DNA from: Candidatus Bathyarchaeia archaeon
GTDB taxonomy: Archaea > Thermoproteota > Bathyarchaeia > Bathyarchaeales > Bathycorpusculaceae
Direction of reading: 5' to 3'
Length of the DNA: 16,261 bases
Assembly: GCA_038883795.1 (NCBI GenBank)
Contig: JAVZLK010000036.1
Span: 1 to 16,261, forward strand
This document shows, piece by piece, positions 1,571-16,252 of the stretch. A program made the position numbers and the translations under genes. The notes beneath the pieces were generated by a model. It ran no database searches. It was not told the origin of the DNA and saw nothing but the letters and a program-made list of their open reading frames with translations. Each line of letters opens with the position of its first letter. Position 1 is the first letter of the stretch.

Positions 1571-2326
1571 TTAAGTAGTTCGATCGAATTTCTTAAGTAT
1601 CTCTTCGAATATTTTTGAGTGAGTTTCCTTTCCTTCGTATGATGGAAGGAACCATGTCATTTCCTGCAAGTTTCTGGCGATAACCGGTATCCAATCGTGG
1701 GGAATAGATATTATAATGTAACCTTCTGGAGGTTCTTTCAACACCTTGGAACCGAAAGTCATTCCACTTACTATATAGTTGACTTTTCCGCTAATGTATG
1801 GATAGGCAAAAAGCCAAGCACATCCCAAAACAAACGAGTGTTTAGAAACCCACGGCTCCCCTGTTGAGTAGCTCATAGCTCTCAAGATTAATTCTGCTTG
1901 ACTAATGTTAGCGGTAACCATCAATAGGTCAGGGTTAAATGTTAACTTATCAATTGGGGAAAATACTACGTAATTAACAGTACCAGGCTTTAAAAATGGA
2001 ACGTAGAAATAAAGTCTTGCATTAGCCCGCGGGTCTTGAAAAATCTTTAATTCAGGTCCTATTAGACCGCTTTCAGCGAAGGGTGGAAAACTCTCCATTC
2101 CTAGAACTTTTTTACCATAGCAATCCTCATTTTCCTTCCCTATGTAAAACGGCTGACCTGTTTTTTGCGCTTCACCTAGACACTCGCAGAGTTTTAATTC
2201 TTTGCTTAGCTGTTTGAAACCTTCCGGCTTCAAATACGAAAATTTTACACCAACCGGCTTTCTCTCTAAGTTAAGTTTATCAAACATCTCTAAGTAAGAC
2301 ATGTTATATTTTTGTTTATTTTTCAT
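1571..2326 (-). CDS. DUF169 family protein (Cys-containing, function unknown)
   Basis: 251 aa. N-terminal L.L.RKPVGVKF, Cys pattern LCEC...DCYG...LG...LGCAW and the F.PDL...segment fit the DUF169/COG2043 layout as I recall it. SD-like GAGGG precedes the ATG. Confidence 0.75.
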   Translation of the reverse strand: MKNKQKYNMSYLEMFDKLNLERKPVGVKFSYLKPEGFKQLSKELKLCECLGEAQKTGQPFYIGKENEDCYGKKVLGMESFPPFAESGLIGPELKIFQDPRANARLYFYVPFLKPGTVNYVVFSPIDKLTFNPDLLMVTANISQAELILRAMSYSTGEPWVSKHSFVLGCAWLFAYPYISGKVNYIVSGMTFGSKVLKEPPEGYIIISIPHDWIPVIARNLQEMTWFLPSYEGKETHSKIFEEILKKFDRTT

Positions 2327-2402
2327 ATTTTTCCCTCAAGGTAGCTGAGATGTATCAAATTCTGTTTATTTAAGTCTTGCGTTTTTTGAGGTAAGAGATA
2401 TT

Positions 2403-2431
2403 AAAAAATACAATAAAAAACAGAAAGAAAA
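2403..2431 (-). terminator. Putative archaeal oligo-T terminator after the SDR gene
   Basis: Minus strand reads ttttctttctgttttttattgtatttttt about 30 nt after the SDR stop. Confidence 0.4.
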
Positions 2432-2458
2432 TTTCAACATTTCTCAACGATTTGAGTT

Positions 2459-3223
2459 TTACTGGGCCGTGAACCCCCCGTCAACAACGATGTTTATTCC
2501 AGTTATGTGTGAAGCGTCGTCGGACAATAAAAACGCGATAACCGACGCTATTTCATCAGCCGTAGCTAACCTATTCAATGGTACTGATTGTCGCAATTTT
2601 TCTGCATGCTCAGGAGTTTCCTTCCAAATTGATTGTAGGAGTGGTGTATTAACGAAGCCGGGAGAAATAGAGTTTACCCTTATGTTGTACTTGGCGTAAT
2701 CCACTGCAAATAACCTCGTAACGGAAAGCAAGGCTCCTTTGCTGGCAGTATATCCTACACCAGGGAGAGCTACACACGCTGCAACCGACGATAGATTAAC
2801 AATTGAGCCTTTACCGGACTCAATCATGTATGGCAGAGCATATTTAGTGCACAAAAGGACACCCATAAGATTCACACGTAAAATTTTTTCCCACACTTCC
2901 GGCTTACCTTCATGAACTAACCTCGTGTCATTTGCGGGGTCAATGATTCCTGCGTTATTAACTAAACCCTGTATTAAACCTAAATCCGATACTATCCGCT
3001 TAAAGACTTCTTTGACGTCCTTTTCTTTACTAACATCCATGTGGTAATATTTAGCTACAAGATTTTTTCCGCGCAGGTCTTTAACAACTTCTCCCCCAAG
3101 TCCATCTTGCACATCGCAAACAGCTACTTTTGCCCCTTCGCTGGCACATCTAATAGCGGTTGCCTTTCCAATACCACTGGCACCTCCGGTGACAACAACA
3201 ACCATTCCCTCCAATCTTTTCAT
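2459..3223 (-). CDS. Classical SDR oxidoreductase, probably NAD(H)-dependent (secondary alcohol/ketone dehydrogenase-like)
   Basis: TGGASGIG, acidic residue after beta2 (VCDVQD), NNAG, catalytic S and YTASK, IRVNSISPG and C-terminal VDGGFTAQ. AGGAGG SD upstream of the ATG. Confidence 0.93.
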   Translation of the reverse strand: MKRLEGMVVVVTGGASGIGKATAIRCASEGAKVAVCDVQDGLGGEVVKDLRGKNLVAKYYHMDVSKEKDVKEVFKRIVSDLGLIQGLVNNAGIIDPANDTRLVHEGKPEVWEKILRVNLMGVLLCTKYALPYMIESGKGSIVNLSSVAACVALPGVGYTASKGALLSVTRLFAVDYAKYNIRVNSISPGFVNTPLLQSIWKETPEHAEKLRQSVPLNRLATADEIASVIAFLLSDDASHITGINIVVDGGFTAQ

Positions 3224-3460
3224 TTTGTCTTCCTCCTAAAAGTTCTAACATTCTGTATTTCAACTTATTAATTTAATGTTCGTATATAGCTTTTGCTATT
3301 AGCTTCTTAAGTCGTTTGAGTTACTTAGCAGAGATGTTAACTTAGCCATAATCAAGTCTTCGTTTCATACACAATTTTTAAAAGTGTTATAAGATTTTAT
3401 AATCATGGTGTTATGATGTTATATTAAAAAATAAAATGAAATGAGAAGAGTTGATTTAAG
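3224..3460. promoter_or_regulatory. Divergent promoter region between the SDR and the CoA-transferase operon
   Basis: AT-rich. TATA-like TTTTATAA (3395-3402) and TTATATTA (3419-3426) on plus; CAAAAG-CTATATA on minus overlapped by the palindrome ATAGC-TTTT-GCTAT (3286-3299). Confidence 0.5.
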
Positions 3461-4816
3461 ATGGATCCAAAAGAAGAGTACAAGAAAAAATTGAGATCAC
3501 CTGAAGACGTTGCAAAGCTAATAACGCCCGGCATGTGGCTAGGAATGGGTAACCTTTCTGCTATCGGATGGCTTTTCGAAAAAGCTTTAGCTGAAAGGTT
3601 GTCAGAGCTGGAGGATATTAAATTATGGCTTGAGATACCGCTTAAACCACTAAAATGTCTCGAAAAAGACAAAGAGGGGAGGGTCTTTTCAGTATATACA
3701 GGATTTTTAAGCGAATTTTTACGTGGAAGACCAAAAGTCTATTATTGGCCAGGACAGTTGGGACAGTACCCGCATTTGTTTAGAGAGGGCTATCTAAAGG
3801 TTGATGTAGCCATTAAAACCGTAACACCGATGGATAAGAGAGGTTTCTTCAACTTTTCCACAGACATTACTTACAGCAGGGCAATGTTCGAGTCGGCAAA
3901 GATAAAAATTGTTGAGGTGAATGAAAGCTTTCCTTGGGTTCCAGGAGGTTACGATGAATGCATACATGTCTCTGAAGTCGATTATATTATAGAAAACCAT
4001 GAGGACAAAATTTTTGAATTACCGATACGGCCTCCATCAGATATAGAGAATAAGATAGCCGAAAATATTCTTAATATTTTGCCAAAACCGCTTGACGGTC
4101 TGACATTGCAAATTGGCATAGGGGGGCTTCCTGATGCGGTCTGTAGGATGCTGGAGGAAATGGGTGCTAAAGACTTAGGGGTACACTCGGAAATGTTAAG
4201 CGAAGGTATATTCAGGCTCGCAGAAGCAGGTATAATAACTGGTAGGAAGAAAAGTTTCTTGCCTGGGAAGATTGTACATACATTCGCCTTGGGAAGTAGG
4301 AAAATGTATGATTGGTTAGATCATAATCCAATGGTAGCTGGATATCCGTCTGACTTCGTTAATGACATAGTGGTAATAGCCCTAAATCATAAGGTAGTTT
4401 CCATAAATTCAGCTCTAGAAGTTGATTTGACAGGACAAGTCAACGCTGAATCTATTGGGCCTATGGAGTTTTCAGGGGTTGGGGGGCAATCTGCTTGGAC
4501 TTATGCCCCCTCTTATCGTTCTCCGAAAGCTATGCCACCAATAGGCTGGCCTTCAAGTATTTCAATTATTGCATTACCATCAACATATTTTGATAAAAAA
4601 ACTAATCAATTGGCCTCTAGAATAGTTCCTATGTTAAGACTCGGAAGCGCGGTGACAACGCAAAGGACAAACACGATGTATGTGGTCACGGAATACGGTG
4701 CAGCCAAACTAAAAGGCAAAAGCGTTAAAGAAAGAGCCCAAGAACTCATCAAAATAGCGCATCCAGATTTCAGAGAGCAGCTAACTAAGGAAGCAGAAAA
4801 GCTTGGTTTTATCTGA
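3461..4816 (+). CDS. Acetyl-CoA hydrolase/transferase family protein (4-hydroxybutyrate CoA-transferase-like, family I CoA-transferase)
   Basis: TLQIGIGGLPDAV, LGVHSEM (catalytic Glu), SINSALEVDLTGQVNAES, SGVGGQ, YVVTEYG, ERAQELIKIAHPDFREQL. Confidence 0.92.
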   Translation: MDPKEEYKKKLRSPEDVAKLITPGMWLGMGNLSAIGWLFEKALAERLSELEDIKLWLEIPLKPLKCLEKDKEGRVFSVYTGFLSEFLRGRPKVYYWPGQLGQYPHLFREGYLKVDVAIKTVTPMDKRGFFNFSTDITYSRAMFESAKIKIVEVNESFPWVPGGYDECIHVSEVDYIIENHEDKIFELPIRPPSDIENKIAENILNILPKPLDGLTLQIGIGGLPDAVCRMLEEMGAKDLGVHSEMLSEGIFRLAEAGIITGRKKSFLPGKIVHTFALGSRKMYDWLDHNPMVAGYPSDFVNDIVVIALNHKVVSINSALEVDLTGQVNAESIGPMEFSGVGGQSAWTYAPSYRSPKAMPPIGWPSSISIIALPSTYFDKKTNQLASRIVPMLRLGSAVTTQRTNTMYVVTEYGAAKLKGKSVKERAQELIKIAHPDFREQLTKEAEKLGFI

Positions 4817-4833
4817 AAGCGGAGGATTTAAAG

Positions 4834-6033
4834 TTGCGCAATGTAGCCGTGGTAGGAGTTGGCCATAGCCAGTTTGGCAGCAGGTTTGATGTGAGAATTG
4901 AAGAATTAGCCTTCGAAGCTGTGAAAGAGGCTATGGAAGACGCTAACATTGAGGCTAAGGATATAGAGTTCTTAGTACTTGGGTGTGCTGGTGTTTGGAG
5001 TGCCGAAGATTCTCCAGCTTTTATTTGCTCAGATTATTGCGGGATTCTCCCCAAAGGCAGTATGCGGGTTGAAGCTATGTGTGCTACTGGAAGTGCCGCA
5101 ACGTTTGTTGGATATAATGCTGTTGCCAGCGGATTTGCAGATTTAGTGCTAGTTCTTGGAGTTGAAAAGATGCATGAACTGCCCAGTTTACTTCAAGTAG
5201 AGCGAATGGGTAGAGGAGGAAGCTTCCTTTGGGAATTTGAAAACTTTGGATTAACTTTTCCAGGGTACTATGCGTTGCATGCAACTCGTTACATGTCACA
5301 ATACGGTTTGAAAGAAGAGGACCTGGCTGAAGTCGCAGTAAAAAATCATTACTATGGCGCAATGAATCCCAAGGCGCAGTTTAGGAAAACCATAACGGTT
5401 GAGATGGTTATGCAGTCAAGATATGTTGCCTGGCCGTTAAAACTTTTTGACTGTTGTCCATTAACAGACGGTTCATGCGCATTGTTGCTGGCAAGTGAAG
5501 ACATCGCCAAGAAACTGACTGATACTCCAATATGGATAAGCTCTATTGGCGTTTCGACGGGAGAAAGTACATTGAGCGCACGACCAGATTACTGTGGTTT
5601 TGGCAGTGCTGTAGAAGCTGCAAAGCAAGTTTACAAAATGGCTGGCATAGATTCTGATAAGCCTTTCAAGCACTTGGACGTTGTGAATGTGCATGATTGT
5701 TTCACGATAGCCGAAATCATGGCTTACGAGGATTTGGGATTCTGCAAAAGAGGGGAGGGTGTAAAACTCGTGAGGGAAAAACAGACATATAATGGCGGTA
5801 TTATCCCAGTTAACATGGATGGAGGTTTAAAGGCCAAAGGTCATCCTATAGGCGCCACTGGTTGCTCAATGATTTACACGTTAACAAAACAACTTAGACA
5901 AGAATATGGTAAATATGCAAATCCCTCTGCACAAGTTACTATCAGAAATGGTAGGGCGCTAGCCCATAATATCGGGGGAGCTGGCCATTATGCGTATGTA
6001 ACGTTGCTTTCACTCGAAAAACCAAGTAGATGA
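4834..6033 (+). CDS. Thiolase of the archaeal/SCP2 type (acetyl-CoA C-acyltransferase)
   Basis: TTG start after GGAGG. Nucleophile motif RVEAMCATG (Cys83), GVEKM, HDCFT, GHPIGATG, HNIGG. Confidence 0.92.
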   Translation: MRNVAVVGVGHSQFGSRFDVRIEELAFEAVKEAMEDANIEAKDIEFLVLGCAGVWSAEDSPAFICSDYCGILPKGSMRVEAMCATGSAATFVGYNAVASGFADLVLVLGVEKMHELPSLLQVERMGRGGSFLWEFENFGLTFPGYYALHATRYMSQYGLKEEDLAEVAVKNHYYGAMNPKAQFRKTITVEMVMQSRYVAWPLKLFDCCPLTDGSCALLLASEDIAKKLTDTPIWISSIGVSTGESTLSARPDYCGFGSAVEAAKQVYKMAGIDSDKPFKHLDVVNVHDCFTIAEIMAYEDLGFCKRGEGVKLVREKQTYNGGIIPVNMDGGLKAKGHPIGATGCSMIYTLTKQLRQEYGKYANPSAQVTIRNGRALAHNIGGAGHYAYVTLLSLEKPSR

Positions 6034-6046
6034 GGAAGGTGGTAAA

Positions 6047-6556
6047 TTGTCCGAGTTGTTTGAAAAAGCTAAAGAGAATATAAAAACGAAAGGTTTACCA
6101 ATAGTCGAAGATGAAAGAACCTTAATGCCGCTATACATAAGTCTGCGTGTGTTTCCGCTTAGATATCAAATAGGAATAGCAAAAATCCAAAAGTTTTTTG
6201 AAGGACTTAAAAAAGGCAAGGTTTATGCAACTCAATGTAACAAATGTGCTAAAAAATTCTTTCCGCCACGTGCAGTTTGTCCTACATGCCTAAACTCCAA
6301 TGTAAGCTGGGTTGAAGTGAATTGTGAAGGAGAACTTTTAACGTATACCATAATAACTGTCAAGCCTCCATCATTTGCCCATTACAAAGATTACGTGGTA
6401 GGCATAGCCCAACTTAAAGATGGACTAAAGGTCCTAGCATGGGTTAACGTGGATGATCCAAAGAAGTTAAAGCCTGGGACACAAGTACGTCTAACTACAA
6501 CAAAAAGGGATCCTGAAGGATATGTAACATATGAATTAGTTCCGATATCCCTCTAA
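6047..6556 (+). CDS. DUF35 Zn-ribbon/OB-fold protein (thiolase partner subunit)
   Basis: FFEGLKKGKV..TQCNKC...FFPPRAVCPTC Zn ribbon followed by an OB fold (GELLTYT...GTQV). Starts 13 nt after the thiolase stop, TTG start after GGAAGGTGG. Confidence 0.9.
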   Translation: MSELFEKAKENIKTKGLPIVEDERTLMPLYISLRVFPLRYQIGIAKIQKFFEGLKKGKVYATQCNKCAKKFFPPRAVCPTCLNSNVSWVEVNCEGELLTYTIITVKPPSFAHYKDYVVGIAQLKDGLKVLAWVNVDDPKKLKPGTQVRLTTTKRDPEGYVTYELVPISL

Positions 6557-6570
6557 CTTTTAAGTATGTG

Positions 6571-6599
6571 AAAACTTAAATTTTATTTGTTCATAAAAT
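6571..6599 (+). promoter_or_regulatory. Possible internal promoter (AAAAC-TTAAATTT) with inverted repeat ATTTTAT-N6-ATAAAAT before the C_GCAxxG_C_C gene
   Basis: The TATA-like box ends about 22 nt before ATG 6606 and there is no SD, consistent with a leaderless transcript. The region is AT-rich, so this is weak. Confidence 0.35.
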
Positions 6600-6605
6600 A
6601 ATTGT

Positions 6606-7160
6606 ATGGCCAGATCTGAAGAATTTAAAATTTTAAACAAGGCTTACGAACTTGGCTTTAAATATGAGAAGTTCAACAAGAATTGTGCTCAATGTACTTT
6701 TGCCGCTGTTTTAGACGCCTTAAACGTTGATTATGACGAAAAAACGTTTAAAGCTACCACTGGACTCGGTGGAGGCGGCGGGTTGACTGGAAGCGGGTCT
6801 TGTGGGGGTTTTTCGGGCGGTGCTATGGCGATAGGTTATATGCTTGGAAGGGGGCTGGAAGGCTTTAGGAACCTTAAGGCAAAACCCGATGAATGCTTAC
6901 GTGCTTTGGTCTTAGTAAAAAAGCTGCATGACAAATTTATTGAGAGCTATGGAAGCATACTGTGTTGTGACGTGCAGAAAAAAATGTTTGGAAGAACCTT
7001 TCAAATGATTAAGCGGGAAGGAGATAAGATAATAATGACGATGGATGAATTTGAAAATGCTGGTGCACATGCAGATAAGGGGTGTCCCGTGGTAGTTGGG
7101 ATGGCTGCAAGGTGGACTGTGGAGATTTTATTACGTGAGATAACTAAAAATGAACTTTAG
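6606..7160 (+). CDS. C_GCAxxG_C_C family putative redox-active protein
   Basis: NCAQC, Gly-rich GLGGGGGLTGSGSCGGFSGGAMAIG, F.ESYGSILCCDVQ and C-terminal KGCPVVVG.AA match the family Cys pattern. Confidence 0.85.
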   Translation: MARSEEFKILNKAYELGFKYEKFNKNCAQCTFAAVLDALNVDYDEKTFKATTGLGGGGGLTGSGSCGGFSGGAMAIGYMLGRGLEGFRNLKAKPDECLRALVLVKKLHDKFIESYGSILCCDVQKKMFGRTFQMIKREGDKIIMTMDEFENAGAHADKGCPVVVGMAARWTVEILLREITKNEL

Positions 7161-7278
7161 ATGTTTTCCCAAGAAAGGTTTAGACAAAATTATCATTTGT
7201 AATGAAAGTGTAGGCAAAGCTTAAAAGTTGAAGGAAATATTTTTCTTAAATATATTCTGTATTTACGAGGTTGAAGGC

Positions 7279-9417
7279 ATGGTCTCGGTTGACAAAATAC
7301 GGGATGTAATCATTATTTCTATTGATGCTGGGGGAACAATGACTGATTGTATCGCGGTGAGAGAGGACGGCTCATTTTTACTCGGAAAGGCGTTGACAAA
7401 CTACGCGGACGAATCATACAGTTTTGGTGAAAGTATAAAAGATGCTTTAAATGACAAATCCCCAGATTTATCGCGCTTAAGGATCTGCGCATACGCTGGA
7501 ACTTTGCTGCTTAACGCTGTGTTAACACGCAGAGGCCTAAAAACTGGTTTATTGACGACAAGAGGATTTGAGCATCTCATCTACTTCATGCGGGGGCACT
7601 CATGGCTAGGGTACTCATACGTGGACAAACTTCATTCTGTCACCCACATCTATCCAGACGTGTTCCCAGGGCCTCTAGTTCCAGTGGACCTAATAAAAGG
7701 TGTTAATGAACGTATAGATACAAATGGTCGCATAGTTATACCGCTGAATGAAGAAGACGTAAAAAGAGGGGTTAACGAGCTTTTGGATAAAGGTTGCCAA
7801 TCCATTGCGGTGAGTTATCTCAACTCCACAATGAATCCAGTTCATGAGATTAAGACAAGAGAAATAGCTAAGGAAGTTATTAATGAACGAGGGTTAAATG
7901 TTCATGTTGTTTTGTCTTCAGAAGTTTCTCCTAGAGGTAAAGAGACCGAGCGCACTGTCAGTACTGTTATTCAAGCTTTTGCTGCTGAACCAGCGGCTAA
8001 TCAACTTTTGAGAGTTGAGACCAAAGCCAGAGAGATGGGTTTTAAAGGAAACTTATACACGGTCCTTTCCTATGGAGGTTTAGTTGACATTAGATATCCT
8101 AGGCTATATGAAACTCTCATAAGCGGACCAATAGGCGGGGTTCTGGGATCTAAGTTCGTTGGCGATATTCTCGGCGAAAAAAACATTGTAGCCACTGATT
8201 TAGGTGGAACGAGCTTTGACGTTGGAATAATTAAAGATGGCATAATACACATAGAAAGAGAACCAGAAGTGGCCCGTTACATGCTTAGTCTTCCAATGGT
8301 GCGTACCGACTCCATAGCCGCGGGTGCGGGCATGGTCGTACGTGTGGATCCAGTTTCCAAACTTATAACTTTAGGTCCTGAAAGCGCTGGTTACCGTGTA
8401 GGCATATGCTTGGATTATCATGAAGTTACAATAAGCGATTGTAACGTGGTTTTGGGCTATTTAAACCCCAACTACTTCCTGGGAGGTAAAGTAAAATTGA
8501 ATAGAGATAAGGCATTAAAAGCTATCGAAGAAAAGATTGCGCAACCCTTAGGTCTTGATGTTTACAATGCTGCCTACCTAGCTATTGCATCATTGCATGC
8601 TAAAATGAGTGACTGGCTTAATGCCACATTAATGGCGAGAGGTTACACACCCTTAGACTATATACTTCTATGCTATGGTGGCGCCGGGCCTCTTCACATG
8701 TGGGGATTTGACGTAATACCCTTCAAAGATTATATAACCTTCAAGTTTGCAGCCGGTTTCTCAGCTTTTGGAAATTCTACGGTGGACTATATGATTAGGG
8801 AGCATAAGAGCGTGAACATCAGTATTCCCCCAAATCCAGATGCTGAAACAATTATGAAGGTTGGAGAGCATTTAAATAGCGCATGGGAAGACCTCGAAAA
8901 CAGGCAAATGAAAATACTAACTTCCCAAGGATTTTCAACGGAACAAATAATCATCAAACAGATTGCCTATATGAGGTTTGCGGGACAATTGGAGGATCAT
9001 GAAGTATTTTCACCCAGAAGCAGAATTTTGAAACCCGAAGATTTCGATGACTTAATGAAGGCTTTTGAAAGCGTCTACACATCTATATATCCAAAGGCAG
9101 CCTTATTCCCTGAAGCTGGAATTGTCATAAAAGAAGTGGCTACCTTAGCTTTAGTAACCGGAATGCCCAAACCGAAAATAATTAAGAAGCCACTAAGTGG
9201 TGAAAAGCCTCCAGAGAGCGCATTCAAAGGTCAACGTGAAGTTTTCTACGAGAAAAACTGGGTGACCTTTGATGTTTGGGAAATGGATCCACTTCAACCT
9301 GGCAACAAAGTGTATGGTCCTGCAATAATTGAACATCCCATGACAACTCTTGTTGTACCTCCACAAAGAAGGATCTACATTGACGAATATGAGTTTATTC
9401 ACTATTCTAGGAGGTGA
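7279..9417 (+). CDS. acxA: Acetone carboxylase-like beta subunit (hydantoinase A/oxoprolinase family, ATP-binding)
   Basis: IDAGGTMTD, SGPIGGV, DLGGTSFD, LGPESAGYRVG.C, TISDC..VLGYLNP..FLGG, YGGAGP.H, AAGFSAFG are collinear with bacterial AcxA as I recall it. The ORF is open from TTG 7228, but ATG 7279 follows a GAGGT SD and is preferred. Confidence 0.88.
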   Translation: MVSVDKIRDVIIISIDAGGTMTDCIAVREDGSFLLGKALTNYADESYSFGESIKDALNDKSPDLSRLRICAYAGTLLLNAVLTRRGLKTGLLTTRGFEHLIYFMRGHSWLGYSYVDKLHSVTHIYPDVFPGPLVPVDLIKGVNERIDTNGRIVIPLNEEDVKRGVNELLDKGCQSIAVSYLNSTMNPVHEIKTREIAKEVINERGLNVHVVLSSEVSPRGKETERTVSTVIQAFAAEPAANQLLRVETKAREMGFKGNLYTVLSYGGLVDIRYPRLYETLISGPIGGVLGSKFVGDILGEKNIVATDLGGTSFDVGIIKDGIIHIEREPEVARYMLSLPMVRTDSIAAGAGMVVRVDPVSKLITLGPESAGYRVGICLDYHEVTISDCNVVLGYLNPNYFLGGKVKLNRDKALKAIEEKIAQPLGLDVYNAAYLAIASLHAKMSDWLNATLMARGYTPLDYILLCYGGAGPLHMWGFDVIPFKDYITFKFAAGFSAFGNSTVDYMIREHKSVNISIPPNPDAETIMKVGEHLNSAWEDLENRQMKILTSQGFSTEQIIIKQIAYMRFAGQLEDHEVFSPRSRILKPEDFDDLMKAFESVYTSIYPKAALFPEAGIVIKEVATLALVTGMPKPKIIKKPLSGEKPPESAFKGQREVFYEKNWVTFDVWEMDPLQPGNKVYGPAIIEHPMTTLVVPPQRRIYIDEYEFIHYSRR

Positions 9418-9423
9418 AAAATG
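9408..9423 (+). promoter_or_regulatory. Strong ribosome-binding site overlapping the acxA stop (TAGGAGGTGAAAAATG)
   Basis: GGAGGTGA is complementary to the 16S rRNA 3' end. Its TGA is the acxA stop. Confidence 0.75.
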
Positions 9424-11607
9424 ATGGGAATAGGATATGGCGGGAAAACTCTCAAAGAGCTTTTAGAAGAAAATGTAAGACTTTTCAAGGAGACCGGATG
9501 TTATTACGGAATAAAGGAGCTAACGCTTAGAAAAGAAGATCCAGTTAAACTGGAACGTTTTTCCTCGCGGTTGCTGTCCTTGGTGGTCGGGGCGCGAGAG
9601 TCTGTGAGATACATTGCTTCTTCGCCGGGCACAAAAGAAGTGGGAGAACTTGTCTTTGCAATATTCACTCCTGAAGGAGACGGTGTAGTCTTCTCAACGG
9701 GTATCATGGCTCATGTTAACACTCTCTCACGGTTTATAAAGTGGATGATAGAGCGTGACTACGAAAGTGACCCAGGTATAGTTGAAGGAAGGTACTTTGA
9801 GGCTAATGATTGGTGGGTTGGGGGGCTACATCCAGTTGATGTGTTGCAGGTCACTCCAATCTTCTACAATGGACAGCTTATTGGATGGTGTGGGGGTGTT
9901 ATTCACGAACTTGAAGCAGGAGCTTATGAACCAGCTGGCTGTCCGCTATCTCCTACGCGCTTCTTGGAGGGGGTTCATCTAATGGGTGATATTGTCGGCG
10001 AGAACGACAAACTCAAGAAAGAGTATGTCGAAAAAATGAAGGTAAACGTGAGGATGCCAGAAATTTTCATAATGGATGCTAAAGTAAGGCTTTCCGGTAA
10101 TTACATGATCAGAGAGGGTGTTAAAAAAGTAATCGAAGAATTTGGCATCGACTATTACATGAGAGCAGTACGTGAACTCATAGAAGAAGGGCGAAGGGCG
10201 TTTCTAGAAAAAGTGAAACTAACCTTGATACCCGGAAAGTACAGGACCGCAGCTTTTATACCCCTAAACTATGGCCAAATAGAGGGATTGAGACGTTTAC
10301 ATCCCCTCGCCCAACAAGACACCTTACTACAATTTGCCTATGAAATAAAAGTCAACGAAGATGGCACGCTGGATTATGATTTTTACGCCGCAAATCCCCA
10401 AGGCCCTCACCCATTGCATGCAACTCCAACCCTTTTGAGAGGTGGCTTATGGATTACTTTAACCCAAATATTAGCTTACGATCTCAGAGTTTCTGAGGGA
10501 ACCAACCTTTGCGTCTCCTTCTCAGCGCCGCCGGGTTCAACGTTAAACCCAACGGATCCCCATGTGTCTACATCTAACGTATGGAACGTTTTATGCACAA
10601 TTTTTGGGTCTGGGGTCCGACTACTTTCACAAGGATTCTTTGCAAGGGGCTTTTTGGAAGAAATATTTCAAATGAACGCTAATGACATGCACGCAATCCA
10701 ATTGCTAGATGTTAGAGGAGGGTTGGCAGGTGGGGATAACATGGAGCATGCAGGCGCTGGAAGCGGTGCAAGAGCTGTTGAGGACGGGTTGGATGCAGGG
10801 CACTGTTTATGGCTGCCAGACACAACCGCTGGAAATGCTGAAAGATGGGAAGAGCTATATAACGAACTATACCTTTACCGCAGCTTTCTGAAGGATGTTT
10901 ACGCACCGGGTAGATTCCGGGGAGGCGTAGCCCGAAACTCCAGCTTCATTGTATGGACAGACTTTATGCAGGTAGTTTTCAGGTGTGGATGGACACCAGG
11001 TGTTTTCCCTTTCGACAAGGGAATGTTCGGTGGCTACCCGCCACCCACACCATTTGGCTACGCCTTAAGGAATACTAATGTCAAGGAGCTAATCGAAAAG
11101 GGACTTCCACTGCCGAGGAACGTGTTTGAAATTCTTGACGCCCTCAACAAAGGAATTCTAAAAGCTGATGAAGTGTATTTCTACAAGACTCATGATGTAA
11201 CTCCACGCTTGAAACATTACGACATATTCGGAATAGTGCATAAAGGCGGTGCGGGTTACGGCGATCCAATAAAGAGAGACCCTAAGTTGGTGCTAAGAGA
11301 TATAGGAATGGGTCTCGTTAGCCCAGAATATGCCGAGAGAATCCATGGAGTAGTTCTTAAACGGGAGGGAGACAAATGGACGGTGGATATAGAAGCAACG
11401 TTGAAAAAACGTGAGGCTATCAAGAGTGAAAGACTAGCTAAAGCAATTCCAGTGAAAGATTTCATAGAGCAGGAACGCAAGAGAATTTTGGATAGAAACA
11501 TTCCAGAGCACGTTCTAAGGTGTTATAGAGATTGTATGAGAATTTCACAGAGGTTTAAGGAAGAATTTTACAGATTCTGGAATCTAAATGAGAACTTTGA
11601 ACTGTAG
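9421..11607 (+). CDS. acxB: Acetone carboxylase-like alpha subunit (hydantoinase B family, metal-binding catalytic subunit)
   Basis: GG.TLKE, ARE...IA.SP, GE (E76), STGI..HV (H98), HP.D (H137/D140), GGV.H (H162), RGFLEE, GMFGGYP, GG.GYGDP. Lies between acxA and acxC homologues. Confidence 0.88.
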   Translation: MMGIGYGGKTLKELLEENVRLFKETGCYYGIKELTLRKEDPVKLERFSSRLLSLVVGARESVRYIASSPGTKEVGELVFAIFTPEGDGVVFSTGIMAHVNTLSRFIKWMIERDYESDPGIVEGRYFEANDWWVGGLHPVDVLQVTPIFYNGQLIGWCGGVIHELEAGAYEPAGCPLSPTRFLEGVHLMGDIVGENDKLKKEYVEKMKVNVRMPEIFIMDAKVRLSGNYMIREGVKKVIEEFGIDYYMRAVRELIEEGRRAFLEKVKLTLIPGKYRTAAFIPLNYGQIEGLRRLHPLAQQDTLLQFAYEIKVNEDGTLDYDFYAANPQGPHPLHATPTLLRGGLWITLTQILAYDLRVSEGTNLCVSFSAPPGSTLNPTDPHVSTSNVWNVLCTIFGSGVRLLSQGFFARGFLEEIFQMNANDMHAIQLLDVRGGLAGGDNMEHAGAGSGARAVEDGLDAGHCLWLPDTTAGNAERWEELYNELYLYRSFLKDVYAPGRFRGGVARNSSFIVWTDFMQVVFRCGWTPGVFPFDKGMFGGYPPPTPFGYALRNTNVKELIEKGLPLPRNVFEILDALNKGILKADEVYFYKTHDVTPRLKHYDIFGIVHKGGAGYGDPIKRDPKLVLRDIGMGLVSPEYAERIHGVVLKREGDKWTVDIEATLKKREAIKSERLAKAIPVKDFIEQERKRILDRNIPEHVLRCYRDCMRISQRFKEEFYRFWNLNENFEL

Positions 11608-11621
11608 GAGGTGAAAAAATG
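11605..11621 (+). promoter_or_regulatory. Strong ribosome-binding site overlapping the acxB stop (TAGGAGGTGAAAAAATG)
   Basis: Same GGAGGTGA element as at the acxA/acxB junction. Here the TAG is the acxB stop. Confidence 0.75.
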
Positions 11622-12113
11622 GCTGTTTCTTACCCTGAAGAAGTGATAAAGAAACTTGTTAATCGAGAACTTCCGTGGGAAGATTTGAGAAGAATTATGT
11701 CTTCATTTAAGGATGCCGACCGCTTTGAAAAATATATCAAAGTTCTACAGGAACAGACTGGATGGCGGGAGCCTATAGTACTACCGTTAACAGAACATCT
11801 AATGATCGTTAACAAGGATGAAAAGCTGATAATAAAAGCCCTGTGTGGATATGAGCTTGGAGATTACAGAGATAACTGGAAACTTAAAGTTTTGATCCAC
11901 GTCAGGAATTCGGTTGAAAAGTTCAAGGAGATCTATCCAGATCCACTAATACCTGACCCTAACTGGTGCGAAATACGAGAATTCATATGCCCTGGCTGCG
12001 GAACATTATTGGATGTGGATGCGGTTCCTCCCGGATATCCTATAATTAAAGAATTCGAACCAGACATTGAAACTTTCTATACAAAATGGTTGAAAAAGCC
12101 ATTACCAAAATAA
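11619..12113 (+). CDS. acxC: Acetone carboxylase gamma subunit
   Basis: KD.DRF.KY..VLQE...W...IVLPL, CG..LGDYRDNWKL, EIYP, IREFICPGCGTLLDV, YP.I.EFEPDIE.FY..WL; 164 aa. Confidence 0.92.
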   Translation: MAVSYPEEVIKKLVNRELPWEDLRRIMSSFKDADRFEKYIKVLQEQTGWREPIVLPLTEHLMIVNKDEKLIIKALCGYELGDYRDNWKLKVLIHVRNSVEKFKEIYPDPLIPDPNWCEIREFICPGCGTLLDVDAVPPGYPIIKEFEPDIETFYTKWLKKPLPK

Positions 12114-12120
12114 TCTAAAA

Positions 12121-12145
12121 CTTCTTTTATTATTCTTTTTATTAT
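12121..12145 (+). terminator. Putative oligo-T terminator between convergent acxC and nitrilase genes
   Basis: cttcttttattattctttttattat immediately follows the acxC stop. Confidence 0.45.
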
Positions 12146-12165
12146 GCCATTGTCAATTCGTGAAT

Positions 12166-13029
12166 CTATCTTTGTGTTAGTTCGGTGTATGTTTCAGGGC
12201 GTCTATCCTCAAATATGGTTCTAACCCCCATGCATAGATTTTTTAATGAAGACAGATCTAATGTAGCGATGGCAACTCCTTCTTTGTCGTCTAACGGTCC
12301 AGCGTATATGTGATAGCTCATTTTGCCAGGCTTTGGTCCAATTATCATACTATGTCCAAAGTAGCTGAATTCTCCTTGTCTTCCGACCATATTAGCGCTT
12401 GCAATAAACATGTTATTTTCGATGGAGCGTGCTCCAAGAGTTGTGGTATAAAAGTCTAAATAATCATCTGCATCTGGAAATCGTGGGAACGCTGTAATAT
12501 TTAGATGTATCCTGGCCCCTCTTGTTGCGTAGACTCTAGGGACTTCTGGAAAGCAATAGTTATCGTAACATATGCCTATTCCGATTAAACCCCAGGGAGT
12601 TTGGATCACTGGGTATGAATTACCCGGTGTAGCCCATTTTTCTGCAAATTTAGCTGGATGGACTTTACGGTAAACGCCTAGGATTCCTGTAGGACCTATG
12701 AATGGCACGGCATTATAAAGCTTTGAACCGTTCCTTTCTATCATTCCAAACGCGACATAGACCTTATGTTCAGCTACAATTTTTTGAACGGCATTTGTCG
12801 AAGGCCCTGGGATGGGTTCTGAAAGCTCGTTGGCCATTTCTGGAGGAAAACCACTATAACTTGTTAAGGCCAACTCGGGAAAGACGATAATGTTGGCCCC
12901 CCTCTCCGCTCCCTCAACAATGAAGTGCTCAATTTTTTTCAACGTGGCAGCTTTATCCGGCTTTAGCCCGTCAATCACGGGTTCGAAGTTTACAACAGCA
13001 ATCTTAACAATATCTCGGTGAGATAACAT
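12166..13029 (-). CDS. Carbon-nitrogen hydrolase (nitrilase/amidase superfamily)
   Basis: Glu-Lys-Cys triad motifs VFPELAL, YRKVHP and GICYD..., plus ARSIEN, ANMVG, YFGHSMIIGP and the C-terminal DRRPETY. Confidence 0.93.
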   Translation of the reverse strand: MLSHRDIVKIAVVNFEPVIDGLKPDKAATLKKIEHFIVEGAERGANIIVFPELALTSYSGFPPEMANELSEPIPGPSTNAVQKIVAEHKVYVAFGMIERNGSKLYNAVPFIGPTGILGVYRKVHPAKFAEKWATPGNSYPVIQTPWGLIGIGICYDNYCFPEVPRVYATRGARIHLNITAFPRFPDADDYLDFYTTTLGARSIENNMFIASANMVGRQGEFSYFGHSMIIGPKPGKMSYHIYAGPLDDKEGVAIATLDLSSLKNLCMGVRTIFEDRRPETYTELTQR

Positions 13030-13179
13030 ATCTTCTTTTATCTCCTTGCATGCTAATAACTATAAAAAACTATTTAAATTAAAATGTTGCTAATCTACGG
13101 AAAAGTTTATATCTTACTTTTCTTTTGCAATAAAACTTTTATAGTTCTTGTTTTCCAACGTAATAGACTGGGGATTATC
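13030..13179. promoter_or_regulatory. Divergent promoter region between the nitrilase and the ABC binding protein
   Basis: Plus strand BRE/TATA-like GGAAAAG-TTTATAT (13099-13112) and AAAAC-TTTTATA (13132-13143); minus strand TTTTTATA near 13061-13068. Confidence 0.5.
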
Positions 13180-14436
13180 GTGAAAAGCAGAGCCGTAACT
13201 AAAATGCAAGCAATTATAATTGCCGTGATAATTGTTGTTGTTATAATCGCTGGTGGGGTCTATTACTTCTACCAAACTCAAAAGGGTGCAAAGGAAAAAG
13301 TGGTAATAGGGTATGTCGACGCGTTTACTGGAGTATTCGCTCCGGGGCCGGAGACATGGGGTACAATATGGATGGAGATCCTTATTGACGAATATAATAA
13401 GGCCGGCGGTCTTTATGTCCCCGAATATGGCAAAAAATTACCTATCGAGTTTATAAAGTATGACTCAAAAAGTGATACGGAGACACTTATTAGGCTTACA
13501 GAAAAGTGTATGAGCGAAGACATGGTTGACCTAATGTTTGCGCCATGGGGAACTTCTCAAAACTTTGCCGTTCTGCCGTTATATGAAAAATATGGATATC
13601 CGTTGATAGCCCATGCCATGGGAAGTGGTCAAGTAGTAGACCTTATACTCTCCGGTGGAACAAAATGGGTTTTTCCTGTACTGTGCCAACCACCATTTGT
13701 AGCTAAGTATGTGGCAGATTTCCTTGTATGGGCAAATGCATCTCGCATAGGCATCATTGGCATAAGTGATTTACACGGCATAGAATTTACAGGGCGGCTG
13801 GCGTCGGAGTTGGCACAGAGAGGCATTACTCCAGTAGTTGGACCGGAGCTTTATCCATTGACGGTTACTGATCTATCGCCATTAATCAGGAAGCTTAAAG
13901 AGGCCAATGTGGACGCTTTGTGGGCGTCCACTTACCCGGCGGATGGGACTCTATTAATAAGGCAGTGTATGGAGCTTAGTTATGTTCCTAGAATAATGTT
14001 CATGGGTCCTGGCTCCCAATATCCGGCGATAATGGTGCCCGCCTTTGGTGTTAAAGCAATGACAGGAATTATGGAGTACCACGGATTTGAAGTGGATTAT
14101 AAAAGTTCTACAAAGCTGCTTGAACTTGCCGAAAAATATAAAGCGAAAGTTGGTTATTATCCTGGGGCCAACACTATAGCAGCTTACGTTTGCCATCAAG
14201 TGCTTTTCAAAGCCGTAGAAAAGTATGGCCTAGACAGAGTTAAAATTAGAGACGCCTTTTTGGCTGGTGAAACTTTCGACACTGTAGTTGGGCCAGCAAA
14301 GTTTGATACGTCAAATGTTTACTTAGACGCTCCAGGGGCTGGCTACATTTGTCAATGGCAAGGCGAAGAGATACTGAAGGTTGTGTGGCCTTTGAACAGA
14401 GCCACCGCGCAATGGATTCCTAAAACTTCGTGGTAA
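13180..14436 (+). CDS. LIV-family (type 1 periplasmic binding protein) ABC substrate-binding protein with an N-terminal membrane anchor
   Basis: VIG...AFTG.FA, YNKAGGLYV, YDSKSD, VDLMFAPWGT, DLSPLIRKLKEANVD, FDTVVG..KFD, QWQ. The ORF is open from 13084, but GTG 13180 after GGGGA gives a clean signal/anchor (MKSRAVTKMQAIIIAVIIVVVIIAGGVYY). Confidence 0.87.
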   Translation: MKSRAVTKMQAIIIAVIIVVVIIAGGVYYFYQTQKGAKEKVVIGYVDAFTGVFAPGPETWGTIWMEILIDEYNKAGGLYVPEYGKKLPIEFIKYDSKSDTETLIRLTEKCMSEDMVDLMFAPWGTSQNFAVLPLYEKYGYPLIAHAMGSGQVVDLILSGGTKWVFPVLCQPPFVAKYVADFLVWANASRIGIIGISDLHGIEFTGRLASELAQRGITPVVGPELYPLTVTDLSPLIRKLKEANVDALWASTYPADGTLLIRQCMELSYVPRIMFMGPGSQYPAIMVPAFGVKAMTGIMEYHGFEVDYKSSTKLLELAEKYKAKVGYYPGANTIAAYVCHQVLFKAVEKYGLDRVKIRDAFLAGETFDTVVGPAKFDTSNVYLDAPGAGYICQWQGEEILKVVWPLNRATAQWIPKTSW

Positions 14437-14457
14437 AGACTTTCGGAGTGTTTTTAA

Positions 14458-15342
14458 TTGGTAACCCCTTCTCTTTTTTTGGACATAATTGTCGGTGGTG
14501 TCATTTTAGGAGCATTCTACTCGTTGATAGCGGTAGGACTTAATTTGCAATATGGGGTTACGCGTATACTTAACGTTGCACATGGAGAATTTTTGATGCT
14601 AGGCGCTTACCTAACTTATTTCTGTTTCACACTATTTGGAATGAATCCTTTTGTATCCATAGTCATCGTTGGACCTTTGATGTTTTTTGTCGGACTATTT
14701 GTATATGTGCTAATACTTCGTAGGGTGGTGAAACTATCAAAGTCATCTGAAGAGCTTGAGTTTAGATCTTTACTAATATGTTTCGGCCTTTCTTTTGTCA
14801 TCCAAAACTTAGCTATGGTTTTATGGACAGCAAATTACAGAGGTTATGAAGTGCCTTCGCTTGGAATAATAACTATTTGGGGCGTGAGTTTTGAAGTTAA
14901 TAGGATAATTATCGCTTTAATATCAATCGCTATCAATGTTTTCCTTTACGTGTTTTTGCGATTCACAAAGACAGGCTTAGCCATGCGAGCCATGGTAAGC
15001 CAGCCTGAAGGAGCTCAGCTTGTTGGCGTTAATCTTAATCATATCTACGCCGTATCATTTGGCCTTGGCATTTTATTCAGCGCTTGGGCAGGCACTCTGA
15101 CAAGTGTTCTGTATTCTACAATAAATCCATTTATGGGGGTTCCATATACATTAATCAGCTTAGTATTAGTAATTCTGGCTGGTGTCGGCAGTTTTAGAGG
15201 TAATGTTGCGGGAGGATTTTTGCTTGGATATCTGGCGTATGTCACTATGAGGGTGATACATTCAGCGTTAACTCTTGTTGTTATATACGCCGTTCTGATA
15301 CTGATACTTCTAGTCAAACCTAAGGGACTGTTTACGAGGTGA
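14458..15342 (+). CDS. livH: Branched-chain amino acid-type ABC permease, LivH-like
   Basis: YSLIAVGLNLQYGVTRILNVAHGEF, TKTGLAMRA...AQLVGVN, VILAGVGS and C-terminal KPKGLF; TTG start. Confidence 0.88.
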   Translation: MVTPSLFLDIIVGGVILGAFYSLIAVGLNLQYGVTRILNVAHGEFLMLGAYLTYFCFTLFGMNPFVSIVIVGPLMFFVGLFVYVLILRRVVKLSKSSEELEFRSLLICFGLSFVIQNLAMVLWTANYRGYEVPSLGIITIWGVSFEVNRIIIALISIAINVFLYVFLRFTKTGLAMRAMVSQPEGAQLVGVNLNHIYAVSFGLGILFSAWAGTLTSVLYSTINPFMGVPYTLISLVLVILAGVGSFRGNVAGGFLLGYLAYVTMRVIHSALTLVVIYAVLILILLVKPKGLFTR

Positions 15343-15349
15343 ATTCTAG

Positions 15350-16252
15350 TTGGTTAGAGTAACGAACAATGTTTACTTGAAAATTTCTCCCTTGGTAATT
15401 TTTGCACTGTTAATGGTTGCTCCGTTCTTCATGGTGAGATATCACTTAGCATTGTTAACCAGCGTCCTATGCTGGATTGGGTTGACTGTTAGCTGGCACT
15501 TTTTTAGTGGCGTTACAAAATATGTCTCATTGGGTTCCGCTGCGTTTTTTGGAGTTGGGGTATATATAACGGCCATATTCTGTAGGACGCTAGCTTTCCC
15601 GCTCATCTTATTGTTAGCTGGTGTAATTAGCTTTTTATTTGCATGCGGCGTCGGTTTCGTCACTTTGAGAATGAAAGGTGTATTCTTTGCTATATTCACT
15701 TTTGGACTGGCCGAGCTTTTAAATAATGCAATATTATTCTGGGAGATGTCTGTAACTGGGACACGAGGTAGGTTCATTACGCCTTTTGACGTTTATTATC
15801 CAATACTCATAATTACTTTTGCCATCATCTTGTTTACAACTATTTTAAGAAAGTCAAAGTTGGGCCTTGCGCTAAGGATGATCGGTGAATGTGAGGACGC
15901 TGCTATTCATTTCGGCGTAAATGCTACGTTATATAAGGTTATTGGGTTTGCCGTGAGTAGCATGTTCATCGGCCTATTGGGCGCGTCGTTTGCACCCCGG
16001 TGGGGGTACGTGGATTCTGGTATAGCTTTTAACAGTTTATACTCATTTATGCCTGCGATAATGACGTTATTCGGTGGAACGGAACTGTACTTTGGACCTA
16101 TCGTAGGTGCTTTAGTTCTCTCATTACTGGAAGAGTATCTGCTTACCACTTTTAAGGACTATTTCATGATAATCTTAGGATCAATAATGATTCTTATCAT
16201 CCTCGTTTTACCTGAAGGAATAACTGGGAAACTTTTAAAGAAAGCTGGTTAA
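15350..16252 (+). CDS. livM: Branched-chain amino acid-type ABC permease, LivM-like
   Basis: SW...SG...YVSLG.AAFFGVG.Y, LRMKGVFFAIFT, SKLGLALR.I.E.EDAA..FGVN, LFGG....GPIVGA, LPEGI; TTG start after GAGGTGA. Confidence 0.88.
   Translation: MVRVTNNVYLKISPLVIFALLMVAPFFMVRYHLALLTSVLCWIGLTVSWHFFSGVTKYVSLGSAAFFGVGVYITAIFCRTLAFPLILLLAGVISFLFACGVGFVTLRMKGVFFAIFTFGLAELLNNAILFWEMSVTGTRGRFITPFDVYYPILIITFAIILFTTILRKSKLGLALRMIGECEDAAIHFGVNATLYKVIGFAVSSMFIGLLGASFAPRWGYVDSGIAFNSLYSFMPAIMTLFGGTELYFGPIVGALVLSLLEEYLLTTFKDYFMIILGSIMILIILVLPEGITGKLLKKAG

Follow-up and report, generated by a model that had tools for sequence, protein, structure and literature searches.

An archaeal gene island that joins a non-canonical, three-subunit acetone-carboxylase-type enzyme to CoA-transferase, thiolase, nitrilase-superfamily and importer genes

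Gene content of the island

The DNA analysed here (the window) is a complete contig of 16,261 bp, C36 of the Candidatus Bathyarchaeia genome bin G000, and it carries between positions 1571 and 16252 a gene island built around the three subunits of an acetone carboxylase (Acx)-type enzyme. The carboxylase genes follow one another on the plus strand, separated by 3 and 11 bp. The first, acxA (7228–9417), encodes a HyuA-like beta subunit with an ASKHA fold and an ATP site (Pfam families Hydant_A_N, PF05378; Hydantoinase_A, PF01968; Hydant_A_C, PF19278); acxB (9421–11607) encodes a HyuB-like alpha subunit with a Mn centre (PF02538); and acxC (11619–12113) encodes the gamma subunit, a small Zn-ribbon protein of the Acetone_carb_G family (PF08882, 1.3e-41). 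The true start of acxA is more likely the ATG at 7279 than the TTG at 7228, because the alignment to the solved enzyme begins there, as does the homolog at a related locus, L020.

Upstream on the same strand lies a string of four genes with gaps of 17, 13 and 49 bp. It comprises a family-I CoA-transferase of the acetyl-CoA hydrolase/transferase type (3461–4816; AcetylCoA_hydro N and C domains), a thiolase of the kind paired with DUF35 (4834–6033; NCBIfam PRK06064, 524 bits against a cut-off of 420), the DUF35 protein itself, a zinc ribbon with an OB fold (6047–6556; zf-ChsH2, PF12172, and OB_ChsH2_C, PF01796), and a putative redox protein of the C_GCAxxG_C_C family with seven cysteines (6606–7160; PF09719, 8.9e-20; TIGR01909, 51 bits against a cut-off of 47). 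Two minus-strand genes complete the left side, a short-chain dehydrogenase (SDR; 2459–3223; adh_short_C2, 1.4e-66) and, leftmost in the island, a DUF169 protein with four cysteines (1571–2326; COG2043; PF02596, 1.7e-30).

On the right, a nitrilase-superfamily gene (CN_hydrolase, 12166–13029, minus strand; PF00795, 6.9e-47) converges with acxC. It is followed on the plus strand by the substrate-binding protein of an ATP-binding cassette (ABC) importer (13084–14436; Peripla_BP_6, 8e-35) and by two permeases, one like LivH/UrtB (14458–15342; BPD_transp_2, 1.6e-31) and one like LivM/UrtC (15350–16252; BPD_transp_2, 8.1e-21). The start codons of the divergent CN_hydrolase and binding-protein genes are 54 bp apart (13030–13083), and the two are probably under one common control region. 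The importer ATPases are absent from the window because it ends with its contig and they sit beyond that end; in a near-identical contig of another genome they are two minus-strand genes (G341:C8:59421–60846; ABC_tran, BCA_ABC_TP_C). Pfam families matched all 14 gene-sized open reading frames (ORFs) of the window, 13 of which lie within 1571–16252; the fourteenth, outside the island, is an ABC permease of the molybdate/tungstate/sulfate type (2–1201, minus strand). The contiguity of SDR, CoA-transferase, thiolase and DUF35, acxABC, nitrilase-family hydrolase and LIV-type importer described in an initial annotation of this DNA is therefore what we find in 1571–16252.

The carboxylase is of the three-subunit acetone carboxylase type

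All three subunits found their best-scoring solved relatives in AcxABC of Xanthobacter autotrophicus Py2 (PDB 5M45, 5SVB, 5SVC). The beta subunit scored 570 bits against Acx chain 5m45_B, 385 against acetophenone carboxylase (Apc) and 248 against 6yra_A, which is deposited as a 5-oxoprolinase. The alpha subunit scored 426 bits against Acx alpha (5m45_A), 178 against Apc delta and 38 against a lactam-opening chain, and gamma scored 148 against Acx gamma and 46 against Apc beta. Matches to the NCBIfam Apc models were far under their cut-offs (399 against 1500, 180 against 1500 and 44 against 250 bits), as were those to caprolactamase models (357 and 52 bits against cut-offs of 1000). Distance to Apc, oxoprolinase and caprolactamase was judged by these bit scores and by the HyuB outgroup in the trees described below.

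The gene content agrees with the scores. A HyuB-like alpha, a HyuA-like beta and an Acetone_carb_G gamma occur together, as in acetone carboxylases (AcxABC, EC 6.4.1.6 type). Beside the carboxylase genes we found neither a second HyuA-like gene nor a gene for the epsilon subunit (unassigned, ~30 kDa), both of which belong to the five-gene Apc/Acr systems. The locus also departs from the hydantoinase, 5-oxoprolinase and caprolactamase (HyuAB) pattern in having gamma and in the lower scores of lactam-opening chains; according to the available text of PMC13677872, gamma is specific to Acx and Apc. Judged by its sequence, the enzyme is of the three-subunit Acx type, neither a five-subunit acetophenone carboxylase nor a hydantoinase, and the single HyuA-like gene and missing epsilon gene support the earlier view that it is distinct from acetophenone carboxylase.

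We also found that the catalytic residues are conserved. In the X. autotrophicus alpha subunit the Mn ligands are Glu89, His150, Asp153 and His175 (PMC12250083, available text); E76, H137, D140 and H162 of the window protein align with them, so that all four ligands are kept. This ligand set is present in 47 of 88 family members. In the other 41, from a clade of Mesorhizobium, Sinorhizobium, Lentibacillus and Saccharopolyspora (L104, L038–L042, L049 and others), His150 is replaced by Gln; most of these loci carry an SDR gene directly after gamma, and they form another uncharacterised branch, with an altered metal site. The beta subunit likewise keeps the equivalents of Ser391 and Phe405, two nucleotide-contacting residues of the X. 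autotrophicus structure (PMC5543143, available text). The contact between alpha Glu85 and beta Asn578 that gates the internal channel of that enzyme is Lys/Glu in the window. Over 79 loci this latch pair is basic/acidic in 57, Arg/Ser in 14, Glu/Asn in 5 and Arg/Asn in 3, and the latch would seem to be conserved in another chemical form.

The gamma Zn site of the solved enzyme consists of Cys74, Cys76, Cys124 and Cys127 (PMC5543143, in the part available). Window gamma has A-C-C-C at these positions, three of the four cysteines. The full set is missing in 25 of 86 gammas, including those of P. denitrificans and Cereibacter (S-A-C-S). Because these canonical-clade proteins keep only one of the four, we rejected the cysteine loss as a sign of remodelling or changed function. 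The proposal that remodelled enzymes point to a larger or polar substrate found no support, given the four retained Mn ligands, the retained beta Ser391 and Phe405 and a gamma cysteine loss that is not diagnostic.

The alpha subunit lies outside the canonical clade

We placed the alpha subunit in two trees, one of 46 non-redundant sequences with three HyuB outgroups under LG+G4, and a second of 33 rows under a mixture model. Sequences longer than 905 residues, or at least 88% identical to a kept row, were left out. The profile search with alignment patterns excluded the canonical clade, and the named references were taken from plasmid records. In both trees the window and three related loci (L019, L020 and L017) formed one clade on a stem of 0.85–0.9 changes per site. 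This clade fell into a well-supported larger group with other archaea (a Thermoproteota metagenome-assembled genome (MAG), Jordarchaeia and 'Scotarchaeum'; 42–46% identity) and a Pseudonocardia/proteobacterial clade. Elsewhere, next to haloarchaeal plasmid copies, lay the canonical clade of P. denitrificans, C. metallidurans CH34, Cereibacter and Ancylobacter; enzyme papers on P. denitrificans and C. metallidurans CH34 reportedly exist, as they appear in reference lists. Window alpha thus falls outside the clade of those acetone carboxylases that have been studied biochemically. A topology constrained to unite the window clade with the canonical four was 185 log-likelihood units worse and was rejected by the approximately unbiased (AU) test (p = 2.6e-15; we defined this grouping with the tree already in hand), which bears out the earlier description of the enzyme as a non-canonical Acx.

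Several other branches of the alpha tree have distinctive gene arrangements. Plasmids of Natronorubrum (L103) and Halococcus (L105) carry an acxABC-like operon together with a second, stand-alone alpha paralog, the Halococcus plasmid also has an alcohol dehydrogenase gene, and both haloarchaeal copies group next to the canonical bacterial clade. In a basal bacterial clade (Binataceae and 'delta proteobacterium' MAGs; L028, L029, L034, L035, L040) the order is gamma–alpha–(alpha)–beta, with two tandem alpha paralogs in L028 and L029.

The island behaves as a unit in a Bathyarchaeia host

The window is colinear over its whole length, at 99.6–99.8% identity, with a 222-kb contig (C8) of the 96%-complete genome G341. 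G341 belongs to the same family as G000 (2.18 Mb in 81 contigs; completeness 87%, contamination 3.4%) and to a different genus. Two 12-kb pieces from other G000 contigs were 81–93% identical to genomes of their own genus and only 65–74% identical to G341. Because the window is near-identical to G341 while the rest of its bin is this distant, C36 probably comes from an organism like G341 and was misbinned, unless it was transferred very recently. Under misbinning and recent transfer alike, the host is a Bathyarchaeia archaeon. The closest alpha homologs (75–88% identity, eight 90% clusters) include proteins of Candidatus Bathyarchaeia MAGs, and in G341 the island is flanked by Mre11/Rad50 on one side and an ATP-dependent DNA ligase on the other, genes that are kept in all nine genomes of the G341 genus. 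The archaeal host first suspected from the sequence is thereby confirmed. DNA near-identical to the window is present in hot-spring metagenomes of three studies.

The comparison with congeners of G341 shows the extent of the island. The G341 island is bounded by a fused ABC permease, whose gene ends at 44374, and by a nitroreductase gene starting at 61220; exactly the 13 island genes of the window and the two minus-strand ABC ATPases occupy the intervening 16.8 kb. Counterparts of this permease (81–84%) and nitroreductase (89–91%) are only 1.5–1.8 kb apart in the congeners G016, G364 and G345, where the slot holds a NIF3-like gene and a small ORF. No counterparts of the 15 island genes were found in the stretches examined from these three and from a fourth congener, G406; the two ATPases matched only another ABC ATPase there, at 30–31%. 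This 15-gene presence or absence, together with recurrence of island genes beside acxABC in all three related loci, substantiates the idea that the genes form one unit. A repeat scan noted no signs of mobile elements at the island ends. G406 carries a different insert of ~12 kb in the same Rad50-to-DNA-ligase slot (L111, G406:C33:24500–44499), and this position may be prone to acquiring accessory genes.

The carboxylase is also rare. Among 401 sampled genomes of the class, a close alpha homolog (E <= 1e-50) was present in four, namely G000, G341, G267 (78%) and G146 (39%), and at 1e-80 a homolog was found in 3 of 401 genomes of the order. Four of 40 nearer relatives had HyuB-like matches, with only 22–24% identity.

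Island genes recur at the most closely related loci

The three related loci (L017 in G267, L019 and L020) have carboxylase genes 70–85% identical to those of the window, in different surroundings. At L017, DUF35, thiolase and CoA-transferase genes run divergently from acxABC. At L019, LivGF, LivMH and binding-protein genes are divergent from acxABC, a CN_hydrolase gene converges with acxC and a C_GCAxxG_C_C gene comes after it. The order at L020 is LivG, binding protein, a thiamine pyrophosphate (TPP) enzyme, CoA-transferase, a thiolase fragment, acxABC and CN_hydrolase. Counting the window, the CoA-transferase occurs in three of four loci (73–80% identical in L017 and L020), thiolase in two plus the fragment (78% in L017), DUF35 in two (63% in L017), CN_hydrolase in three (75–78%, at the same position in L019 and L020), the binding protein in three (79–80% in L019 and L020), C_GCAxxG_C_C in two (77% in L019), and SDR and DUF169 in the window only (1/4 each). 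CN_hydrolase orthologs (75–81%) also occur on two contigs of 36,826 and 35,601 bp, the same sizes as contigs with further alpha matches, which points to two additional cases of the association.

We scanned 88 acx loci for these neighbours (E <= 1e-8 with matches spanning half the length; at 4.4 kb, the contig fragment L018 was uninformative) and found no homologs of the CoA-transferase, DUF35, C_GCAxxG_C_C, CN_hydrolase or binding protein outside L017, L019 and L020; near none of the 84 more distant loci do CoA-transferase, DUF35, CN_hydrolase or binding protein recur. Weak thiolase matches (27–32%) occurred at three other loci, and SDR matches (28–38%) directly after gamma in the rhizobial clade. 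CoA-activating genes of other kinds flank acx elsewhere, as CoA-transferase A/B in Ancylobacter, an acyl-CoA synthetase at L026 and a family III CoA-transferase at L030.

Enzymes and importer encoded around the carboxylase

Among solved structures, the thiolase is most similar to the archaeal acetoacetyl-CoA thiolases 7yvy and 6esq. Its CA(T/S)G-motif Cys and GHP-motif His align with those of the solved relatives and are presumably the catalytic residues. The match to the NCBIfam equivalog for the M. thermolithotrophicus thiolase (329 bits) was below the cut-off of 600, as was that of the CoA-transferase to TIGR03948 (345 against 675). The SDR scored 181 bits against a 3-hydroxybutyrate dehydrogenase model (cut-off 258) and 178 against an (R)-alcohol dehydrogenase model (cut-off 400), and is a candidate for either a ketone-making secondary-alcohol dehydrogenase or a 3-hydroxybutyrate/acetoacetate dehydrogenase. 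A second thiolase/DUF35 pair, 59% and 42% identical to that of the window, is encoded elsewhere in G000 (L107, G000:C5:32000–40000) in a beta-oxidation cluster with acyl-CoA synthetase, enoyl-CoA hydratase, acyl-CoA dehydrogenase and 3-hydroxyacyl-CoA dehydrogenase genes.

The best solved relatives of the CN_hydrolase are the P. abyssi nitrilase 3ivz and PH0642 (~1e-30). It keeps aligned PEL, YRK and C-x-D motifs, which we take to be the Glu-Lys-Cys triad, and it is a putative amidase, nitrilase or carbamoylase. The nearest solved relatives of the binding protein are urea-binding proteins, at only 1e-14. Scores against the urea transporter models were below cut-off (UrtA 41 against 493, UrtB 140 against 250 and UrtC 74 against 296 bits), as were those against LivJ/H/M models (LivH 91 bits, for the first permease), so the binding protein and permeases do not qualify as a urea ABC transporter (UrtABCDE). 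We rejected the idea that CN_hydrolase and importer are an independent module widespread in Bathyarchaeia: at 1e-50 the hydrolase was found in 4 of 401 genomes, two of them with only 45% identity and in another context.

A probable ketone carboxylation route and its alternatives

From the gene content, the unit behaviour, the family placement and the conserved catalytic residues we infer the reactions and substrates considered here. On balance, we favour a route in which carboxylation would turn a small aliphatic ketone into a beta-keto acid, which would then undergo CoA transfer and thiolysis, with the CN_hydrolase and importer as an attached feeder module. The beta subunit would bind ATP and phosphorylate the enolised ketone and bicarbonate, and alpha would join the two at its Mn centre, with gamma as a structural subunit and a beta-keto acid as the product. 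The CoA-transferase encoded upstream would convert this acid to a beta-ketoacyl-CoA, which thiolase and DUF35 would split to acetyl-CoA, giving two molecules if the ketone is acetone. The SDR would either oxidise a secondary alcohol to the ketone or interconvert 3-hydroxybutyrate and acetoacetate. The substrate would most likely be acetone or another small aliphatic methyl ketone, and the CN_hydrolase–importer module would probably import and deamidate a polar compound.

Several observations are consistent with this route. The genes of an Acx-type carboxylase are closely packed with those of a CoA-transferase and of a thiolase/DUF35 pair that keeps its catalytic residues, in line with the pathway logic of the initial annotation. 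A carboxylic-acid product agrees with the CoA-activating genes found next to acx-type operons of other clades. The thiolase, C_GCAxxG_C_C protein and SDR that Desulfococcus biacutus induces on acetone (PMC4103992, available text) are, by annotation, a further parallel. G267 has acxABC, CoA-transferase, thiolase and DUF35 but no CN_hydrolase at E <= 1e-50, and the hydrolase would therefore be dispensable for the carboxylase route.

Other points weigh against it. Acetone needs neither an importer nor a C–N hydrolase, and the CN_hydrolase orthologs of at least 75% identity that could be placed all lie beside acx. Next to the Mn ligands, the window has NDWWVGGLH where canonical Acx has NNDSLIGNVH. 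None of the named characterised enzymes in the trees falls within the window alpha clade or the larger clade that holds it, and because of this and the long stem, specificity may differ from acetone. By our own arithmetic, an ATP-to-AMP carboxylation would leave a fermenting anaerobe with about zero net ATP, and strict anaerobes have been argued to avoid Acx on energy grounds (PMC4103992, available text). A weak hint of expression, by contrast, speaks for the route. Eight pieces of the window are matched, with 0–6 mismatches each, by contigs assembled from a single RNA-seq library of sediment (a metatranscriptome); they cover DUF169 (contigs at 1465–1821 and 1922–2331), SDR, the C_GCAxxG_C_C/acxA junction, acxB and the binding protein, which is the best-covered gene. 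DNA may be present in such libraries, so that the matches are no proof of transcription, and regions lacking such contigs are uninformative about expression.

The alternative that survives best, although we consider it unlikely, is that the carboxylase substrate is a larger, polar or nitrogen-containing ketone, or one derived from an imported nitrogenous precursor. In the nitrogenous version, the importer would take up the compound, CN_hydrolase would remove an amide, nitrile or carbamoyl group, and SDR and the Acx-type enzyme would act before CoA transfer and thiolysis. The CN_hydrolase, binding protein and permeases do belong to the same presence/absence unit, the hydrolase and importer genes recur with acxABC in L019 and L020 (and, as suggested, on the two further contigs), and the catalytic motifs of the hydrolase are kept. 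Alpha, moreover, has a long branch in the trees and residue changes peculiar to its clade beside the Mn ligands, and the binding protein and permeases are nearest, weakly, to urea and short-amide systems. By contrast, the catalytic residues of the carboxylase are unchanged, the island showed no gene that might process an aromatic or amino product, and G267 holds the carboxylase set without CN_hydrolase. An aryl substrate fits poorly with an enzyme of the three-subunit aliphatic type rather than the five-subunit aryl type, and the lignin-derived aryl ketone originally suggested is not favoured by the hot-spring habitat. Of the nitrogen-containing ketone proposed alongside it, what stands is the linkage, in that hydrolase and importer are truly associated with acx, but none of the features we tested points to a nitrogenous substrate. 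That all of this amounts to one pathway, with an amide, nitrile or N-carbamoyl precursor imported and deamidated and its skeleton passed through an Acx-type enzyme of new specificity, is a tentative idea that we regard as rather improbable. If true, it would mean that anaerobic thermophilic archaea process nitrogenous carbonyl compounds by a biotin-free route that incorporates CO2, with C_GCAxxG_C_C and DUF169 proteins as new accessory factors of ketone metabolism.

Somewhat more doubtful still is a route in which the island uses 3-hydroxybutyrate or acetoacetate and the carboxylase recaptures acetone formed by heat-driven decarboxylation of acetoacetate. Acetoacetate is thermally labile, and the DNA comes from hot springs in three studies. 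The SDR matches the 3-hydroxybutyrate dehydrogenase model as well as it does alcohol dehydrogenase models (181 bits), a CoA-transferase and an acetoacetyl-CoA-type thiolase are in the same gene string, and a gene of the acetoacetate decarboxylase family was not found in G341 or G267. However, of the clade's four loci only that of the window has the SDR, the matches of this protein to specific models are all below cut-off, and CN_hydrolase is left unexplained.

An ATP-dependent opener of an amide, lactam, hydantoin or urea-like compound, taken up by the Urt-like importer and with CN_hydrolase hydrolysing the resulting N-carbamoyl or amide compound, is highly improbable: HyuA/HyuB homology, the carbamoylases among CN_hydrolases (present among the weaker solved matches), a binding protein nearest to urea binders and the lack of a detectable urease alpha gene in G341, G267 and G000 speak for it, but the enzyme has a gamma subunit (stated to be specific to Acx/Apc in the available part of PMC13677872) and the full Mn ligand set, scores two- to ten-fold lower against oxoprolinase, caprolactamase and N-methylhydantoinase chains, is only 22–24% identical to the outgroup HyuB of related Bathyarchaeia, and is tightly packed with a CoA-transferase and a thiolase.

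Relation to known systems

Relative to the X. autotrophicus enzyme, the system favoured here shares the number of subunits, the beta–alpha–gamma gene order, the four Mn ligands and beta Ser391/Phe405, and the canonical Ancylobacter operon likewise has a CoA-transferase, which there follows the operon. It differs from canonical Acx in its alpha subunit (~33% identity by tblastn to ~40%, in a separate long-stem clade), in the Lys/Glu latch in place of Glu/Asn and in the missing gamma Zn cysteine. The window also lacks a gene for the sigma-54 regulator AcxR and adds a CoA-transferase of a different family, thiolase/DUF35, C_GCAxxG_C_C, CN_hydrolase and the importer.

Apc of Aromatoleum aromaticum (PDB 5L9W) and Acr of Rhodococcus aetherivorans, a heterodecameric acetone carboxylase, belong to the same superfamily and share ATP-dependent, biotin-free carboxylation and a homologous small subunit; they are encoded by five genes including two HyuA-like genes and epsilon (PMC13677872, available text), whereas the window has one HyuA-like gene and no epsilon. 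The sulfate reducer Desulfococcus biacutus, an anaerobe, is similar in a different respect. Among its acetone-induced products are thiolase 04509, the adjacent C_GCAxxG_C_C protein 04510, an SDR and a TPP enzyme (PMC4103992, available text), which by annotation resembles the thiolase–DUF35–C_GCAxxG_C_C row and SDR of the window and the TPP enzyme of L019 and L020. According to the same text, D. biacutus lacks an acetone carboxylase and uses a TPP enzyme together with a B12 mutase for acetone activation, whereas the window has Acx and no TPP enzyme. The archaeal acetoacetyl-CoA thiolase/DUF35 complexes (6ESQ/6ET9, 7YVY) share the conserved Cys and His and the adjacent DUF35 partner; in the window the pair has no adjacent hydroxymethylglutaryl-CoA (HMG-CoA) synthase gene and is part of a catabolic-looking gene string.

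In the literature searched, which included the available parts of PMC5264521, PMC10547907 and PMC13677872, we found no biochemical study of an archaeal acetone-carboxylase-type enzyme, nor any article on such an enzyme from Bathyarchaeia. Public records already contain annotated Acx-type genes of archaea, including those on haloarchaeal plasmids. The chemistry and pathway logic are known, and they occur here in an unstudied deep clade with an unusual attached gene set. The island pairs an archaeal Acx-type enzyme with a complete predicted downstream route in a well-defined, transferable block, from a class with few cultures, and it offers a compact, thermophile-derived gene set for probing the substrate range of ATP-driven, biotin-free CO2-fixing chemistry. 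It also prompts the question of how ATP-driven carboxylation is affordable for an archaeon that is apparently anaerobic, and provides a testable context for families without known function, namely C_GCAxxG_C_C, DUF169 and this CN_hydrolase branch.

A TPP enzyme at the related loci

The TPP enzyme at L019 (1233–2981, minus strand) and L020 (2786–4543, plus strand) is acetolactate-synthase-like and is encoded beside the importer and acx genes. It scored below all NCBIfam equivalog cut-offs, and its solved relatives include oxalyl-CoA decarboxylase and 2-hydroxyacyl-CoA lyases. Its presence suggested a 2-hydroxyisobutyrate/acetone-cyanohydrin route using nitrilase, CoA-transferase, TPP lyase and Acx. 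We set this aside for the window because the island has no TPP enzyme and G341 has only a 40% homolog elsewhere; none was found in G000 at E <= 1e-10 over half the length. At L019, a gene for a formaldehyde-activating enzyme (662–1156, minus strand) adjoins the TPP enzyme gene.

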